DNA of 64,000 bases from Candidatus Babeliales bacterium (GCA_050179755.1 JBFXEV010000001.1:1321994-1385993), one strand, 5' to 3'. Shown: positions 23,553-34,684, counted from the stretch's first letter. Notes: generated from the letters alone by a model not told the origin. Program-made: numbers and translations.

Positions 23553-24410
23553 TTATTTTTTTTTAGAACTTTTATACATAATAGCCCATGTAACAAGCGC
23601 TCTGTGCTCAGGCCTTTCAAGAGAATAACCAAACTGATGAAACGCCAGAGTTAATTCTTTTACATACACAAGCAGGGCCCACTGCAAAATTCTCCCACAA
23701 GATTCACATGGACCTTTTTCCGTATGTTCATTTTCGCAACAAATATCCATAAGAGACTCTCTTACAAATGTTTTCACGTTTGCTTTGCAGCCACCGCACA
23801 TTATATTGTTTGAGAAACATGCATTATTACGAGAACATGCATGACAAGAATCCGGAGTTATCGGTAATGCTACAAATTTTTTGTGTTTCATTGAAATATT
23901 TACGGGGAGCGCTTTAACTTTAAATAAACAAGCCGTTAACGCCCAATCTTCATCTGACATATCATGCGGCGTCAATTTATCAATACGCACCTTACATTCG
24001 CCAAGACATTGCCATACAGATAAAGGGTTGGTCAGGCAATTATTATGTCGAAAAAATAACGCCATGTTTAATAGTTTATTTATTAACCTTGGTTTTCCTA
24101 AAATGGTTTGCTGCTGTATAGAAGTAAATGTTTGCGCAAGCACATCTCCAAAAAACTTGTGTTGCTGTTCAATTGATCCTTTATTCAACACACTAGTTGC
24201 TCGTTTTAGTAACCCATCCCAAGATCGATTCTGATCGGCTTGCGAATGAAGACCTTCATTTTGCACCATGGCATCAACCGAACGTGCTAAAACCCCAACG
24301 TTACGTGAAGTTGTTGCAACTCCATTACAAGATGCGCTCATGCCAACTCTATCCATGGCAACAAGATTGCTTAGAGTAATTATCAAAACAAAAACCATTT
24401 TTTTAAACAT
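23553..24410 (-). CDS. Secreted Cys-rich hypothetical protein (paralog of next gene)
   Basis: Signal peptide ending LVA-MD; CHAC, CGGC, CESC; C-terminal ALVTWAIMY. Confidence 0.75.
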   Translation of the reverse strand: MFKKMVFVLIITLSNLVAMDRVGMSASCNGVATTSRNVGVLARSVDAMVQNEGLHSQADQNRSWDGLLKRATSVLNKGSIEQQHKFFGDVLAQTFTSIQQQTILGKPRLINKLLNMALFFRHNNCLTNPLSVWQCLGECKVRIDKLTPHDMSDEDWALTACLFKVKALPVNISMKHKKFVALPITPDSCHACSRNNACFSNNIMCGGCKANVKTFVRESLMDICCENEHTEKGPCESCGRILQWALLVYVKELTLAFHQFGYSLERPEHRALVTWAIMYKSSKKK

Positions 24411-24423
24411 AGATAATCTTTTT

Positions 24424-25191
24424 TTATTTATTATTCGATTTATTATTGCCATAAAAAATTGCCCATTTTAAAAGTGCTTTTTCTTCTTGTGTTTGTGGGG
24501 TTATTGCGTTTTCACCTAAACCGATTGCAATCTGCTTTAACTGTACGTAAAGATGATCGCGTAATTTTGTGGTGCAACAGTCACACGCATGCCCGACATG
24601 TTCAGGAGTTGCACAAAAAACGGTATCTTTGCAGCAACGCTCTAATATGCCATTTGTGACTCTTATTTCTATAAGCCTCTTACAGCTTCGGCATATTCCT
24701 GAGGCGATAAGGCATTGTTGGCCTTGATGAGTTGCCCCCACTGCAAGATCTTTAGACAGAGCATACACGTGCTCAATATTTTGGCTTGTGATAGAGCTAC
24801 CTTGCAACGTATCAACATTTTTCTTCATTTCAGCAAGAACTTGCCACAAGGTTACTGATCTTCGACTACTTTCTACAAGCGTATTATCCGTTTGACAAAA
24901 AAGCGCTAATTTAAACAAGCGTTGAGCACGATAATCATCAATACAACCTACATTGCTAATAACATCAACAGTAATCTTTTCAAGAAAAGTCAACGTTTCT
25001 TCAGGCTGCCCTTTAAAAGAGCGCGGGGCTTCACGCACCCAGCCCTGCCACAGTTGTGCGCGGGCCTCATCTTTTTCTTTTTGTGATGCAAGCACCTTTT
25101 TTGCTGAAAAAACATGGCGCGAACTACGATCCATGGCTTGCATAGAAATAGCACTAAGCATCAACATACATATACTTTTTTTGAATGACAT
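24424..25191 (-). CDS. Secreted Cys-rich hypothetical protein
   Basis: Signal peptide ending MQA-MD; CRSC, CC, CDCC; C-terminal ALLKWAIFY. Confidence 0.75.
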   Translation of the reverse strand: MSFKKSICMLMLSAISMQAMDRSSRHVFSAKKVLASQKEKDEARAQLWQGWVREAPRSFKGQPEETLTFLEKITVDVISNVGCIDDYRAQRLFKLALFCQTDNTLVESSRRSVTLWQVLAEMKKNVDTLQGSSITSQNIEHVYALSKDLAVGATHQGQQCLIASGICRSCKRLIEIRVTNGILERCCKDTVFCATPEHVGHACDCCTTKLRDHLYVQLKQIAIGLGENAITPQTQEEKALLKWAIFYGNNKSNNK

Positions 25192-25346
25192 ATTAATTTC
25201 CCTAAAGTAACAATAGCGCTGCAGAGTTCTAGTATAACATGGCATGCTGTCGCTTGAATAGGGCATTTCTAGCATTGCATTGGACTATTTACCTTAATTT
25301 GCTAGACTTAAACCATACCATTTGACGAAAGGCAGCATTGAGCATT

Positions 25347-28280: not shown

Positions 28281-29393
28281 CTACTTCAACTTAGCCTTTG
28301 CTTCTGCTTTGTCAAAACTTGTTGCAGCACGAAGTTTTGCTTTTTTGGCAAGCACATTGGTTGATTCTATTGGATGAGATTGCATATGGTGTAATGCTAG
28401 TTGTGCAAATAAAGCCGATATGCTGCGTTCTGTAACATCTTCCTCTAGAGTAAGCATATGCTCACAAGAGTCGTGAGGGCAGATTACATTTTTGCGCTGG
28501 TTGTTAATTTGCACCATCATTTGCTTGAGCAGCTCATCCTGCATTCTTAATAATTGCCCTTGCGCTTGCACATCAGCACACTCAGGTGTTAAATGTGGAA
28601 TCTTTGTAGAAAGATACAGTGCAACCACTTCTTCTCTTGATTCAGATCTAAATAGCGTTGCCATATTAGAATTTTCAGGATGCGGTGAAACAATATACCA
28701 TGCTCGTGCAGGCTCATGTTGCACACCCTGTGTTTGCCGTGCGTTATTTTCATGTACTGCAGAAACTGCTTGAGGCAAGGGCACCACAGCAGCTTGAGGC
28801 AACTGATATTTATCAAAAAGCTTACGCGCTGTTTCTTTACTTCTTGCAATAAGTTTGGTCATATGTTCATATAATAATGGTTGGTGTTTTGCGCCTAAAA
28901 ACCAATGCTTAAACATATTACTCAAAAGCTTTTTTTCACTGACTTCACTTTGAAGCACCACGTCACAATCGGGGCATTGCATACAATAAGGCATTAAGTC
29001 AGTTTTGCGTTCACGCAATGCATCATTATCCTGCGCTTGCATTAACGCTTTAATTTCAGCAGCGACAGTGGGAAGTGTAACCCCACGACTTCGTACTAGT
29101 TGACTCATATACGTTAACATAAAAGCTGTGCGGTCAACTGAAGCATTTATTGTGGTACTGTCTATAGGATTTACTGCATAGTACATATTTTTTTGTACAC
29201 TGTTTTGAGTCATAACTCTAGAATATTTAGGGCCATCTTCATCAGCTGAGGCAGCTGATTGTTCAACAGGGCTTATCGGACGGCCTCTTTTGCCACCAAG
29301 AATATATTCTTCATCACCATCACTATCCATCGCATGACAATAAGGAACCACAAGCAACAACAACAACAACAATGTACATAAATATTTAATCAT
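28281..29393 (-). CDS. Secreted protein with two C2H2-like Zn fingers (array gene 4)
   Basis: Signal peptide ending CHA-MD; CPDC-x19-H-x6-H and CPHDSC-x24-H-x4-H. Confidence 0.75.
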   Translation of the reverse strand: MIKYLCTLLLLLLLVVPYCHAMDSDGDEEYILGGKRGRPISPVEQSAASADEDGPKYSRVMTQNSVQKNMYYAVNPIDSTTINASVDRTAFMLTYMSQLVRSRGVTLPTVAAEIKALMQAQDNDALRERKTDLMPYCMQCPDCDVVLQSEVSEKKLLSNMFKHWFLGAKHQPLLYEHMTKLIARSKETARKLFDKYQLPQAAVVPLPQAVSAVHENNARQTQGVQHEPARAWYIVSPHPENSNMATLFRSESREEVVALYLSTKIPHLTPECADVQAQGQLLRMQDELLKQMMVQINNQRKNVICPHDSCEHMLTLEEDVTERSISALFAQLALHHMQSHPIESTNVLAKKAKLRAATSFDKAEAKAKLK

Positions 29394-29394
29394 G

Positions 29395-30408
29395 CTAGTT
29401 TCCTTGTTCAATTTTTTTGCGCGCTTGTTCAAAATCGGGTGCAATCGAACCAACCAGAGTTTGAAGGCAGGGGCTATCTTGTTTATGAAATGCTGCATAA
29501 TGCACGAGTAATTCTTGCACTATGCTCTCAAAATTCGGTGCACCTACTTGATACATACAACCTTGCGCTGGGCACACCAAGCTTGTAATTATACTCCCTT
29601 GGACCATGCATTGTTTTTTTGTTTTTAAAACTAAATCTTCTTCTATTGGTTTAAAAGCGTCTAAGTGGCCTTCTATTTTTTTACTGTTTAAATATGCTTG
29701 TAGCACTTCTTCACGAGAGTCTGCAAAATAAAAATCATATATACCCTCTTTTAGAGGAGGCGTTACAATAAAGCAACGTTCAGGTGACGCTTTTAATTTT
29801 GCGCGAACATTTCTTGTTGGTTCTTCTGATTGCAAATGCTCCGACTCTTCTATTTCTTCATCTTCATTATCTGCTACATTGCGATCACGCTTTTTCTCAA
29901 ATAACAAAGGCTCTTGCTTTTCAGATTCTTCATGATCACTTGGAAATGAAACAACCTTAAACGATTTTCTCTCTTTATGCTTACGCTTGGCTTCAGCATG
30001 GGTTTCTGCCAATAATGCCGTTGCATATGCATGAAGATCTGGCTGATGTCTAGCTGTAGTATACCAATGCGCCAGAAGGGTGGATGTTAACCCTTGCTTT
30101 TTATTTTTTCCAGATGTTAATTTTGAAGTACATTGAGAATCAGGGCAAGTAATAAGCCATTTACTTGCCGCTATACTTTGCCTTCCATGCTTGTTACAAT
30201 ATTTTTGAATTTTTGCCCTCTCACTATCAACATCTAATTCAGAAGCGTGCAATACTGTATTCAACATGACTTTTTGCAATAATGCACCTTTGTATCCGTA
30301 TGTAATAATCTCTGTAGAATCTTCTGGATCAACTGCATGCCACATGCTAAAAGCTGAAATTGGAACCATACAAAAAATTAACCATATTCTTAAGATTTTG
30401 TTTGACAT
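29395..30408 (-). CDS. Secreted protein with two C2H2-like Zn fingers (array gene 3)
   Basis: Signal peptide ending AFS-MW; CPDSQC-x20-H-x6-H and CPAQGC-x18-H-x4-H. Confidence 0.75.
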   Translation of the reverse strand: MSNKILRIWLIFCMVPISAFSMWHAVDPEDSTEIITYGYKGALLQKVMLNTVLHASELDVDSERAKIQKYCNKHGRQSIAASKWLITCPDSQCTSKLTSGKNKKQGLTSTLLAHWYTTARHQPDLHAYATALLAETHAEAKRKHKERKSFKVVSFPSDHEESEKQEPLLFEKKRDRNVADNEDEEIEESEHLQSEEPTRNVRAKLKASPERCFIVTPPLKEGIYDFYFADSREEVLQAYLNSKKIEGHLDAFKPIEEDLVLKTKKQCMVQGSIITSLVCPAQGCMYQVGAPNFESIVQELLVHYAAFHKQDSPCLQTLVGSIAPDFEQARKKIEQGN

Positions 30409-30444
30409 GCATCATCCTTGCTCTTTAGTAAAGCATCAAATAAA

Positions 30445-31227
30445 TTATTTTAAGGCTTGTAATTTTGCCAAAGCTTCCTCAAAACTAGCTGCAATACGTT
30501 TTTCAATTTGTTGATAGTAATCAGAGTCTTGCGCATGCTCTATTAACTGATGCAATACTATTTTAACGCGTAATTGCGTAACTGACAATTGCAATTCCAC
30601 ATGATTACAATGTGGGCAATTTATACTATATTCATTACCGTTTTGTACTATATGTTCATTCACTACTGTTTCACTTTTTGCACGTAAAGTTGCATATTCT
30701 TGTGAAGTGGCATTATCTACCACGTATGATAGATATTTTGCAATAAGCGCTGCACGAGAATAATCAATAAAAGCCAAGTGCCTGTGCAGTTTTGGCTCAA
30801 AACACACTAGATATAAAGGTTGATTGCTGATTTGTGCATGCCACTCCGCAAGCAAAGCATCTAGCTTAGGATCATCAAGTCCAAGCGCATCTAACTCCTT
30901 ATCAAATGAACTTCTTACTAAAGGTAGACCAATGCCATTTGAGGATGCTGCAGCATTAGTAAGTTCGTCTTGTGGGCTGAGCTCAGGCATTACAAGAACG
31001 GGAGGTGGCTCAGGAAGCCTATAGATGGGTTGAAAAACATTACTTGCCTTTACAAATGGCGCCATTGGCGCAACTGTTTGCTGGCATTTTTTTGCTGCCT
31101 CCCACGGTATACGCAGAATTAATCTTTTTTGTGCTGGCTCGATAGATGCGTTACAATCTCTCTGCATGCAAAATAAATGCGTATGTACATTAAAAAAAAG
31201 CACTACTGCCGTTGTTCTCTTATACAT
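30445..31227 (-). CDS. Secreted protein with one C2H2-like Zn finger (array gene 2)
   Basis: Signal-like N-terminus ending LFC-MQ; CPHC-x18-H-x4-H. Confidence 0.75.
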   Translation of the reverse strand: MYKRTTAVVLFFNVHTHLFCMQRDCNASIEPAQKRLILRIPWEAAKKCQQTVAPMAPFVKASNVFQPIYRLPEPPPVLVMPELSPQDELTNAAASSNGIGLPLVRSSFDKELDALGLDDPKLDALLAEWHAQISNQPLYLVCFEPKLHRHLAFIDYSRAALIAKYLSYVVDNATSQEYATLRAKSETVVNEHIVQNGNEYSINCPHCNHVELQLSVTQLRVKIVLHQLIEHAQDSDYYQQIEKRIAASFEEALAKLQALK

Positions 31228-31255
31228 GCGAAAGTCTCATACCTCTCAATAAAAA

Positions 31256-32149
31256 TTATGTTATTCCGTATAATTTCTTTAAAGCTTCTTCAGGTGACGT
31301 GCAAATGCCTGCAGATACGTTTTGATACCACTCTGAATTTTTGCAATGCGTTACCACAAAATGTGCAAATAACTGAACTATCAAATCTTTTGCACATGGT
31401 GCAACTTCAGTATGGCTACATAACAAGCCACCCGCGCTACATTTAATTGCATACTCGGTTCCCTGCATAAATAGAGGTAGCGTATTTACTTTTTTATGCA
31501 AATGAGCCTGCGCATGGCGCCAAGTTTCTGCATTTACTTCATTAATACAATAAATAAGAATATTTTTTAGCAAGTCAGGCTTGCTATCTGCAGAGAATAT
31601 ACGCACATTTTTAGTCATATAATTATATGCTGCCATACAGTAAATTGAAGGAAGTGCGGGTGGCGCAGCAGATAATTGATCATTATAAGAAGGAGTATCC
31701 AATAACTGAAGCCCTTCCCAATCTAAATACCCTCGGTTCCAAAAATCATCGTCAAAAGCAAATTCAGTTTGAGACGCCACTGCTTGAGGCACTGGTTGTG
31801 GTAAGCCTCCCGCTGTAATTCTAAAACAATCAGGTGGCATCGGAGCATCACTCGCTGCAAGAATCGCATCCACTTTATTTTTTTTCTGAGTTGGTTGCTG
31901 AGCCTCTGGTTCTTCAACAGCTGACTTAAGTTGAGCAAAATATTTTTCTCCGTCAATAATGCCTGCTTCTTGCAGCGCCTGGCATCTCGGCTTTTCGCTG
32001 CCCGTAAGATCAAGAATAGGCAAATGTGCTGTATACCGTGCACTAAAAGAGCGATGATCGACTGGCTCTGGTTTGCGAAATGAGTCCATGCATAATACGG
32101 TGCTCATCAAGCCAATAAGAAAAATGAAACTCAAGAATCGCTTTTGCAT
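31256..32149 (-). CDS. Secreted protein with one C2H2-like Zn finger (array gene 1); start may be 32158
   Basis: Signal peptide ending VLC-MD; CSAGGLLC-x18-H-x4-H. Confidence 0.75.
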   Translation of the reverse strand: MQKRFLSFIFLIGLMSTVLCMDSFRKPEPVDHRSFSARYTAHLPILDLTGSEKPRCQALQEAGIIDGEKYFAQLKSAVEEPEAQQPTQKKNKVDAILAASDAPMPPDCFRITAGGLPQPVPQAVASQTEFAFDDDFWNRGYLDWEGLQLLDTPSYNDQLSAAPPALPSIYCMAAYNYMTKNVRIFSADSKPDLLKNILIYCINEVNAETWRHAQAHLHKKVNTLPLFMQGTEYAIKCSAGGLLCSHTEVAPCAKDLIVQLFAHFVVTHCKNSEWYQNVSAGICTSPEEALKKLYGIT

Positions 32150-32223
32150 CAACTCCACTCCCTACCATAGTGCATAAAGCATACACAAAAGAAATGGGGA
32201 ATGGCAACTGGTAGTTAGAAAAA

Positions 32224-33418: not shown

Positions 33419-34684
33419 TTGAAGTACCGTTTATATAGAAAAATAGTATATATCATCATCTTATTCTGCATGCCACGCACCCACTTTGCATGGGACAACG
33501 CACATTTTTATCGCTCTCCCTATTTCTGGGGTGAACCACGCTATGAACGTAGTAAGCTTTCAACGTGGCAAGCATATTTTGGTTGGTCATTTGCAAAAAA
33601 CGGTAGAAACAGCGATGGCAAAAAAACGAATATTCTTAATATTTACGGCCCCTATAATATGCATAATGTGGGCAGCAATGTAAGCACCCTTGATCCGCAA
33701 AATCCCCTTGACCGTATAGTCATAGACCTGAATAATGTTACCAATGTTTCGCCAACATTTGGCGTATTTAGTTTTGAAGGGAAATTTCATTCATTTGAAA
33801 TATTATTAGAAGCGTATCAAAACATAGTCAGTGGTTTCTTTTTGCACCTCATGCTGCCCATACGAAAACTAAAAATAAACAGTATTCGCTCAAAAGATTT
33901 AACCCCGCGTCGTGAAGAAAATATACCAGTATGGCAAGAATTTAAGCGAAACTTTTCTGCAATTCTTGAACGGCAAAATATAAGTATTGCGCCTTTTAAT
34001 AAAATGGGCCTTGGCGATTTTACCTTTACTGCAGGCTGGGCACGAAATTATGAAAATACTGAAACGTTAGATTTTATAGACATTGATGCGCGGGTTGGTG
34101 TACTTTTCCCCACCGGCGCTCCAAAAAATGAAAATCGAGTATTCAGTTTACCGCTTGGCTATAATAAACATTGGGGTGTACCACTCACGTTTAATGCATC
34201 GCTTGGTATATGGGATTGGTTAACTGCAGGGTTCCATATAAGTGCTTTATTTTTGGTTGATAAAAATATTGATATTCGTATTAAAACCGATACGGTGCAA
34301 AGCGGCCTTATTCGCTTTGCGCTTGAAAATGCTAAAGTTGATCCTGGATCATTGTTAAATCTGCAGCTTTATGCAAAAGCAGATCATGTGACCAATGGTA
34401 TTTCTGCATATCTTGTCTATCACTTTAATTATCGCGAACCAACATCAATCGCTCTTAGAAATGGTTCAACAATTGATAGTGGTGCTGTACGCAGCGATCT
34501 TTCTTACCATAGCTGGCGCATGCATAGTATGCAATTTGGCCTAGAATACGATCATGCAGCGCAATTATCTGATATTGGTCCACGTCTTGGCATATTCTAT
34601 AATCATGTGTTTAAAGGAAAACGCATTTTTGATGCTGATCTTAAATACTCGTATATCGGATTTGATGCTGCATGGTGTTACTGA
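33419..34684 (+). CDS. Putative outer-membrane beta-barrel protein, distant relative of the 7-14 kb array
   Basis: Signal peptide; GLGDF, VLFPTG, LPLGYNKH parallel to GVAD, APTG, PIVGNGRH; aromatic C-terminal GFDAAWCY. Confidence 0.6.
   Translation: MKYRLYRKIVYIIILFCMPRTHFAWDNAHFYRSPYFWGEPRYERSKLSTWQAYFGWSFAKNGRNSDGKKTNILNIYGPYNMHNVGSNVSTLDPQNPLDRIVIDLNNVTNVSPTFGVFSFEGKFHSFEILLEAYQNIVSGFFLHLMLPIRKLKINSIRSKDLTPRREENIPVWQEFKRNFSAILERQNISIAPFNKMGLGDFTFTAGWARNYENTETLDFIDIDARVGVLFPTGAPKNENRVFSLPLGYNKHWGVPLTFNASLGIWDWLTAGFHISALFLVDKNIDIRIKTDTVQSGLIRFALENAKVDPGSLLNLQLYAKADHVTNGISAYLVYHFNYREPTSIALRNGSTIDSGAVRSDLSYHSWRMHSMQFGLEYDHAAQLSDIGPRLGIFYNHVFKGKRIFDADLKYSYIGFDAAWCY

Follow-up and report, generated by a model that had tools for sequence, protein, structure and literature searches.

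Tandem genes for putatively secreted CCHH-module proteins in a Candidatus Babeliales genome: candidate effectors of the host nucleus

A 64,000-nucleotide stretch of a Candidatus Babeliales genome (GCA_050179755.1, JBFXEV010000001.1:1321994-1385993; hereafter the window, with positions counted from its first letter) carries four adjacent genes, A to D, whose products begin with a predicted signal peptide and contain one or two copies of a module with two cysteines and two histidines (CCHH). The question raised by this locus is where such proteins act, and on what. An earlier note, made from the sequence alone, had proposed exported zinc-finger proteins acting in the nucleus of a host. The analysis described here makes it somewhat probable that A to D are exported host-nucleus effectors acting on transcription. 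Genomes are labelled G000 (the window's own), G001 (its only congeneric genome, recorded as Candidatus Babeliales, phylum Dependentiae) and G130, G241 and G244 (other Babeliales genomes).

The CCHH module and its family

The four genes were recovered as co-oriented minus-strand open reading frames (ORFs) where the earlier note had placed them, with the transcription order D, C, B, A and intergenic gaps of 28, 36 and 1 nt. A Shine-Dalgarno-like site precedes each probable start. Six C-x2-6-C-x18-24-H-x4-6-H motifs were distributed over the products, two each in A and B and one each in C and D. The bare CCHH pattern is common by chance, a similar expression having matched 45 places in the 3,823 six-frame ORFs of G000. 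The earlier note had suggested a search with a hidden Markov model (HMM) of the modules; when each was left out in turn, the HMM of the other five found it with an independent E-value of 1.3e-5 to 4.5e-12, the best unrelated ORF scoring 0.0095. Pairwise comparison agreed for 10 of the 15 pairs, whose scores no more than 4 of 500 shuffles reached, and was not significant for the other five. Judged by these alignments, the six modules are mutually homologous beyond chance. They measure 125-140 aa rather than the ~110 aa first estimated, and the SREE..YL and S/DFEEA (terminal-helix) motifs described as common to the modules were present in four of the six, having diverged in the N-terminal modules of A and B.

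The array is syntenic in G001, which has the corresponding four genes, six modules and flanks, with 40-47% identity. Among 261 genomes of the phylum, the full-module profile matched only G000, G001 and, marginally, G130. A search of 1.84 billion representatives returned 40 matches, namely two chance, two divergent and 36 family clusters, the window's four included; the chance matches, P0018 and P0040, were repeat-rich and were rejected as family. All 20 family clusters looked up were singletons, and the only named one was a 'hypothetical protein'. Longest contigs of identical length suggest that A, B, C and D types share contigs in five other assemblies. No fifth copy was found by a six-frame search of G000, where a 73-aa match at 364261 was rejected as a module copy, since it falls within a long glycosyltransferase-like gene but in a different reading frame. 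Longer fused forms (516-2000 aa) were not found by word-indexed search, which is weak evidence, and none of the 352 pattern matches in a JGI metagenome scan with the B profile was confirmed.

The tree of 50 modules resolved three clades, comprising the A/B N-terminal (99/99), the A/B C-terminal (96/91) and the C/D modules (98/93). Mixed architectures also occurred: two C/D-clade modules are combined in one protein, and in three others a C/D-clade module is fused to a B-type C-terminal module. This would make A and B descendants of a gene with two modules, and C and D descendants of a gene with a single one. The homology and the tree support a duplicated, diverged family of paralogues, as had been proposed.

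The ligands were tallied over 50 full modules, nine of 59 module rows having been dropped as belonging to divergent proteins, duplicates or truncated modules. The putative Cys, Cys and His ligands were invariant and a fourth was present in all 50, being His at +4 in 31, His at +6 in 16 and Cys at +3 in three (47 CCHH, 3 CCHC). Exchange of His for Cys is a change tolerated by a metal site. An AlphaFold2 model of module C (predicted local distance difference test 95.7, predicted template modelling score 0.86) runs beta-beta-alpha-alpha, then beta-beta-beta-alpha-alpha-alpha; in it the knuckle carries the two Cys, and the two His lie where the helix ends. The predicted fold consists of paired beta-beta-alpha units with ligands in the second only, that is, a ligand-free unit and a CCHH unit followed by two closing helices. 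In the model of B, two independent domains are separated by a disordered linker. The conserved ligand positions and the modelled topology agree with the zinc-finger-like character claimed in the earlier note; the Foldseek comparison that it proposed gave no match at E 0.001 against PDB or BFVD.

Pfam reported nothing at cut-off for the four proteins, 30 search matches and nine relatives, a PDB sequence search with the full-module profile gave no match at E 10, and the Atlas offered weak leads only. The best VIA-align scores were Z 4.9 and 5.2, among dsRBD-, HicB- and SERRATE-like rows; such weak structural matches are no demonstration of a new fold. Among PDB sequences, the finger profiles matched best the eukaryotic C2H2 proteins YY1, Zif268 and ZNF410, by way of the CPxxGC knuckle, with YY1 at E 2.6e-4 for the finger profile and ZNF410 and YY1 at a weak E 0.06-0.07 for family-only rows. 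The module shares with these classical C2H2 fingers (PF00096) the knuckle and, by predicted topology, the beta-beta-alpha arrangement with two Cys on the hairpin knuckle and two His on the next helix. It differs in a Cys-His gap of 18-25 rather than 12 residues (49 of 50 modules, the remaining one having 12), a longer helix, two closing helices, mostly neutral charge and the lack of a sufficient PF00096 score. Two groups of small stand-alone prokaryotic CCHH proteins, DUF1059 (PF06348), whose Cys-to-His spacing is similarly long, and zf-Di19 (PF05605), came up as weak leads in the Atlas and in Pfam. These stayed under the cut-off, with a best E of 0.11 for the aligned fingers and of 0.027 for a relative in G130. 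The link to DUF1059 drawn in the earlier note is not supported as membership: its profile stayed below the 21.1-bit cut-off, and the family was not found in 41 Babeliales genomes, G000 included. Taken together, the CCHH module is a real, undescribed domain family within a known functional class of candidates.

Units 1 and 2 of the module aligned weakly (probability 17, E 0.0015), at a score reached by none of 40 column shuffles, and a finger pattern was seen in unit 1 of 2 of the 50 rows. It is plausible from these alignments that unit 1 is a finger that lost its zinc. The divergent match P0033 and the marginal G130 match led to leader-plus-Met proteins with tandem intact fingers in G130, G241 and G244, with similar spacing and genes often in tandem. 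The finger profiles match 5 of 261 genomes, partly by construction, the independent matches being G130:C11 (E 4.6e-5) and G244 (E 5.7e-8). The family finger matched the second finger of the relatives' pairs (probability 93.6, E 2e-7), and a global alignment set unit 1 on their first finger with low probability. In 12 relatives, NLS-like motifs of the kind considered below were found outside the fingers in seven and activation-domain tiles in three; their fingers have a mean charge of +2.4 (32 of 42 positive). Word-indexed searches with the multi-finger proteins of G130 and G244 returned only the queries themselves.

Several of these relatives deserve separate description. In G244 (L064, 5690-10462), three tandem leader proteins of 952, 391 and 167 aa contain six, four and one intact basic fingers. 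Two of them have NLS-like motifs and the largest has an acidic-aromatic region; no other architecture encountered was so clearly transcription-factor-like. In G130 (L065, 5177-7883, and L035, 73-2415), three tandem leader proteins each contain five fingers, with basic motifs immediately behind the leader, and their genes lie downstream of type II secretion system (T2SS)/pilus ATPase genes. Small leader proteins that have paired fingers or strong basic motifs are clustered in L027 and L028 of G241; the L027 frame at about 1400-1900 appears broken from an upstream leader ORF.

Basic motifs, charged arms and the likely partner

Occurrences of the monopartite nuclear localisation signal (NLS) consensus K(K/R)X(K/R) (PMC5288373) outside the modules were counted in 32 family proteins, 8 of the 40 matches having been dropped as chance, divergent or fragments. 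The motif was detected in 21 of the 32, a number reached by none of 1000 shuffles (mean 3.3, maximum 11). Its density was 7.2 per 1000 residues, about sevenfold that in the genome (0.84-1.03). In contrast, G000 leader proteins in general had it no more often than chance (55 of 252, versus 48 in shuffles), and none of 33 leader-bearing ankyrin-like proteins had it in the first 120 mature residues. By type, it occurred in 9/10 A, 3/5 B, 4/8 C, 4/5 D and 1/4 chimaeric proteins. In the window, A, B and D carry it, so that three of the four proteins display, beyond chance, the NLS-like motif characteristic of the nucleomodulin class. Moreover, D orthologues retain KKxK at a fixed position of a region that otherwise varies; it directly precedes a PPDCFR motif in 4 of the 5 D-type clusters, against a shuffle mean of 0.2. 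No motif like that in the B linker was found in the examined stretch of the G001 B linker.

The patches singled out in the earlier note fared unequally. GKRGRP of A stands as NLS-like, given the consensus in nine A-type clusters; its reading as an AT-hook was rejected because only 1 of the 38 family or near-family proteins examined contains RGRP, which the G001 orthologue lacks. KRKHKERK, assigned to a linker, overlaps the last helix of B's first module, and PAQKR of C does not fit the NLS consensus.

Activation-like arms were judged by the rule of Kotha and Staller (equation 3), by which a 39-aa tile has a charge of -13 to -8 and at least six Trp, Phe and Leu residues (PMC10550315). Conforming tiles were found in 4 of 13 C/D clusters (2/8 C, 2/5 D) and in the C protein of G001, compared with 46 of 1144 proteins in the genome. 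Acidic-aromatic tiles made up 8-11% of the disordered tiles of C, D and E types, against 0.7% genome-wide. An alternating hydrophobic/basic motif of the form hydrophobic-x-hydrophobic-basic-hydrophobic(-basic-hydrophobic), a pattern chosen post hoc, was present in 6 of 8 C-type clusters (shuffle mean 1.36; 1/2000). It is similar to motifs that BRD4's extra-terminal (ET) domain binds (PMC6375729). The full ET-binding consensus of Taf14 (PMC7442819) was seen in 2 of 8 C clusters (genome 5/1144), C of the window having the short form only.

The fraction of Lys and Arg in the finger helix was 0.18 in the A/B N-terminal modules, 0.11 in the others and 0.24 in the intact relatives, and the N-terminal module of A was net basic in 10 of 10 A-type clusters. 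Since the majority of the modules lack a basic character, direct binding to DNA is doubtful for all but the N-terminal modules of A and B. These, having the only fairly basic finger helices, are candidate nucleic-acid contacts, the other modules being more likely to bind proteins.

Several observations count against a nuclear role in transcription. C lacks the K(K/R)x(K/R) motif. The short motifs were picked after the sequences had been seen, orthologues do not count as independent cases, and shuffled sequences lose the charge clustering frequent in disordered regions; owing to the last two points, the NLS enrichment is support, not proof. Monopartite NLSs also work poorly in at least one stramenopile (PMC5288373). 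As for the arms, the activation-domain-like stretches that the earlier note had seen in C and D narrowly fail the published rule, by one or two charges, and the rule selected none of 10 A-type N-terminal regions; its precision is 0.2-0.7 even in human factors (PMC10550315). The finger helix is hydrophobic and neutral in the C-terminal and C/D modules, and the family fingers as a whole are neutral (mean -0.3, 17 of 50 positive) while those of the intact relatives are basic. The homology of unit 1 to the finger is weak. Finally, leaders are common in G000 (525 of 1345 crude genes by our own heuristic) and lead only to the periplasm.

Some of these observations would also suit host-delivered protein-interaction adaptors in the cytosol or at the vacuole, with the module as a docking domain and the charged patches as ordinary linker features. 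The near-neutral modules with hydrophobic finger helices, the lack of a matched DNA-binding fold, the missing consensus NLS in C and the nature of the effector candidates reported for Babeliales, which are interaction and ubiquitin-system proteins (PMC4378268), all fit this explanation. It is nevertheless unlikely in view of the NLS-motif density and the absence of such motifs from the secreted ankyrin-like proteins, the positional conservation of KKxK in D, and the relatives combining intact basic fingers with NLS motifs.

A second alternative keeps the proteins in the nucleus and has the three-stranded finger bind structured RNA or RNA-processing factors, like the SERRATE/ARS2 finger or dsRBDs. 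The NLS evidence fits it equally. The SERRATE/ARS2 variant C2H2 finger, a three-stranded sheet plus helix, recurs among the weak structural matches, no BED row being among those listed, and the beta-beta-beta-alpha part of the module weakly aligns to dsRBDs. The SERRATE structure 3ax1 gave Z 3.7 with a root-mean-square deviation (rmsd) of 2.9 over 43 residues and, for B, Z 4.3 with rmsd 4.5 over 61 residues at rank 3, and ARS2 6f7j gave Z 3.5. These rows, at 7-9% identity, are not above background: no match exceeds Z 5.2, and HicB-like proteins and adenylyl cyclases score equally. As the activation-domain-like and ET-motif-like arms suggest transcription, an RNA-directed role appears rather improbable.

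Proposed export, action in the host and known counterparts

The genome is a single contig of 1.525 Mb with 39% GC. Three ATP/ADP-translocase loci, two secretins and two T2SS/pilus ATPases were identified in it, supporting a host-dependent Babeliales genome equipped for export; DsbB was not found in this 96%-complete genome. Protists are the hosts of cultured members of the phylum (PMC12172432), type II secretion is the sole system reported for Babela (PMC4378268; PMC4776705), and signal peptides are the norm for the phylum, 44% of Chromulinavorax coding sequences having one (PMC6561590). Signal peptides were called by eye and by our heuristic; by eye each of the four proteins has one, as the earlier note stated, while the heuristic missed C. 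Leaders were present in all 21 full-length family members examined. A Met directly followed the predicted leader in the same 21 of 21, in 22 of 33 ankyrin-like proteins and in 207 of 608 other leader proteins; it may be a mark of host-bound cargo that restores a eukaryote-like N-terminus.

Since a Sec leader provides for periplasmic delivery only and no further translocation signal is known, A to D could be envelope proteins of the bacterium itself, in the periplasm or at the surface, whose site is structural or buffers metal and which play no part inside the host cell. In keeping with this, the array closely follows, on the same strand, a gene that we take from its sequence to be grpE. Against it stand the eukaryote-type motifs in long disordered arms, a distribution confined to one lineage that shows duplication, fusion and chimaeras, the Met behind the leader shared preferentially with the ankyrin-like proteins, and a lipobox-like string in only 1 of 21 family members. 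We regard such an envelope function as improbable.

For the favoured explanation, effectors acting on transcription in the host nucleus, the following steps are proposed in falling order of confidence. In the signal-peptide proteins encoded by the tandem paralogue array, the CCHH site would bind one Zn ion in a structural role. Sec, together with the type II system or vesicles, would carry the mature, Met-starting proteins to the cytosol of a protist host, where importin-alpha would read the basic motifs and bring them to the nucleus. There, labour may be divided: the basic A/B N-terminal modules would touch chromatin or nucleic acid, the neutral modules would bind host or sibling proteins, and the disordered C/D arms would recruit co-activators via acidic-aromatic stretches and the ET-binding-like motif. 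The paired, basic and fully liganded fingers found in other secreted Babeliales proteins would be ancestral to the module, which would have lost its first zinc site. A bolder version remains doubtful, in which Babeliales have evolved an exported C2H2 transcription-factor family of their own with long-spaced finger pairs, NLS and activation arms reprogramming the protist host genome, divided here among four proteins that are co-expressed and come together on host chromatin, A/B reading DNA and C/D recruiting BET/YEATS-type and Mediator co-activators.

Known systems resemble parts of this picture. TAL effectors (AvrBs3) and Pantoea HsvG/HsvB likewise combine an export signal, an NLS, an activation-like region and a binding domain with paralogous expansion (PMC7819608); they differ in type III secretion, plant hosts, non-zinc DNA-binding domains and demonstrated activity, whereas the array proteins have a Sec-type leader, a presumed protist host and a CCHH module, and are predicted from sequence only. 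Listeria LntA is Sec-secreted, bears an NLS and acts in the nucleus via a host partner (PMC7232420), but is all-helical, lacks a zinc finger and comes from a single-membrane bacterium. Magnaporthe MoHTR3 is a secreted C2H2 effector with a signal peptide and host-nucleus localisation (PMC10189765); it is fungal, whereas the array proteins are bacterial, with x18-25 spacing and a ligand-free partner unit. In Theileria, likewise an intracellular parasite, the genes of the TashAT cluster code for candidate DNA-binding proteins of the host nucleus (PMC10241358); that parasite is eukaryotic, and its proteins are based on AT-hooks, which are not conserved in the array family.

In the literature covered, which was partial, we found no description of secreted zinc-finger effectors in Dependentiae, a point on which the Babela table of expanded families could bear, nor, with the same partial coverage, a precedent for a bacterial C2H2 transcription-factor effector family. 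The reports covered on host manipulation by Babeliales name ankyrin, ubiquitin-system and hydrolase proteins as candidates and no nuclear effector. The array and its relatives offer an undescribed zinc-finger domain pair and a set of specific candidates, cheap to test, for control of the host nucleus in a parasitic lineage that spans the phylum. Should they prove to bind DNA, they would form a bacterial equivalent of the C2H2 transcription factors of eukaryotes and a conceptual parallel to TAL effectors; if the transcription-factor family proves true, it would be a new source of zinc-finger DNA-binding modules.

Features of the array and neighbouring genes

Table 1. Genes A to D and their predicted features in the window
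Feature	Position	Strand	Description
Gene D	31256-32158	-	300-aa ORF; signal peptide, long disordered region, one module; 46% identity to G001 orthologue
D predicted Sec signal peptide, then Met	32090..32149	-	from sequence, own heuristic and orthologues
D monopartite NLS-like motif	31868..31885	-	KKNKVD, aa 92-97
D acidic-aromatic, activation-domain-like stretch	31679..31768	-	aa 131-160; best 39-aa tile charge -7, W+F+L 9
D module	31259..31642	-	aa 173-300; putative ligands C240 C247 H266 H271
Gene C	30445-31227	-	260 aa; signal peptide aa 1-20, disordered Pro-rich and acidic region, one module; 40% identity to G001 orthologue
C motif PAQKRLILRIP	31105..31137	-	aa 31-41; alternating hydrophobic/basic, resembles ET-domain-binding motifs
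C acidic Leu/Trp stretch	30841..30909	-	aa 107-129; best tile charge -6, W+F+L 8
C module	30448..30816	-	aa 138-260; putative ligands C204 C207 H226 H231
Gene B	29395-30408	-	337 aa; signal peptide aa 1-21, two modules, disordered linker; 40% identity to G001 orthologue
B N-terminal module	29968..30345	-	aa 22-147; putative ligands C88 C93 H114 H121; HW-x5-H subtype
B linker NLS-like motif	29881..29895	-	KKRDR, aa 172-176
B C-terminal module	29398..29775	-	aa 212-337; putative ligands C279 C284 H303 H308
Gene A	28281-29393	-	370 aa; signal peptide aa 1-21, short disordered region, two modules; 47% identity to G001 orthologue
A basic motif GKRGRP, NLS-like	29277..29294	-	aa 34-39
A N-terminal module	28806..29183	-	aa 71-196; putative ligands C140 C143 H163 H170
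A C-terminal module	28284..28700	-	aa 232-370; putative ligands C305 C310 H335 H340

The start of D is probably ATG 32149. The ORF finder lengthened A to 29498; its start was taken as ATG 29393 because the Shine-Dalgarno-like site and the orthologues favour that codon. A VVP(F/L)P-like motif is conserved after the first module of A- and B-type proteins, at 28770-28800 and about 29945-29965 (-) in the window. Rfam detected only three tRNAs in the window, and DNA repeats and promoter or terminator signals were not notable above shuffles.

The array sits between grpE and a convergent gene that follows a presumed lepA, likewise named from its sequence. Beyond lepA lies a second tandem pair of leader-plus-Met proteins (23553-24452 and 24424-25275, minus strand) with Cys-rich C-terminal halves, several CxxC and one CC, and no Pfam match at cut-off, possibly another secreted metal-binding family; its counterparts occupy the equivalent place in G001 (L013, 17242-18105 and 18299-19114). 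At 33419-34684 (+), the window encodes a 421-aa leader protein with aromatic-rich strands, conserved in G001 and without a Pfam match, which is possibly an outer-membrane barrel. The lepA gene, intact in the window, is in two pieces in G001 (L013, 15421-17140), probably through an assembly frameshift.

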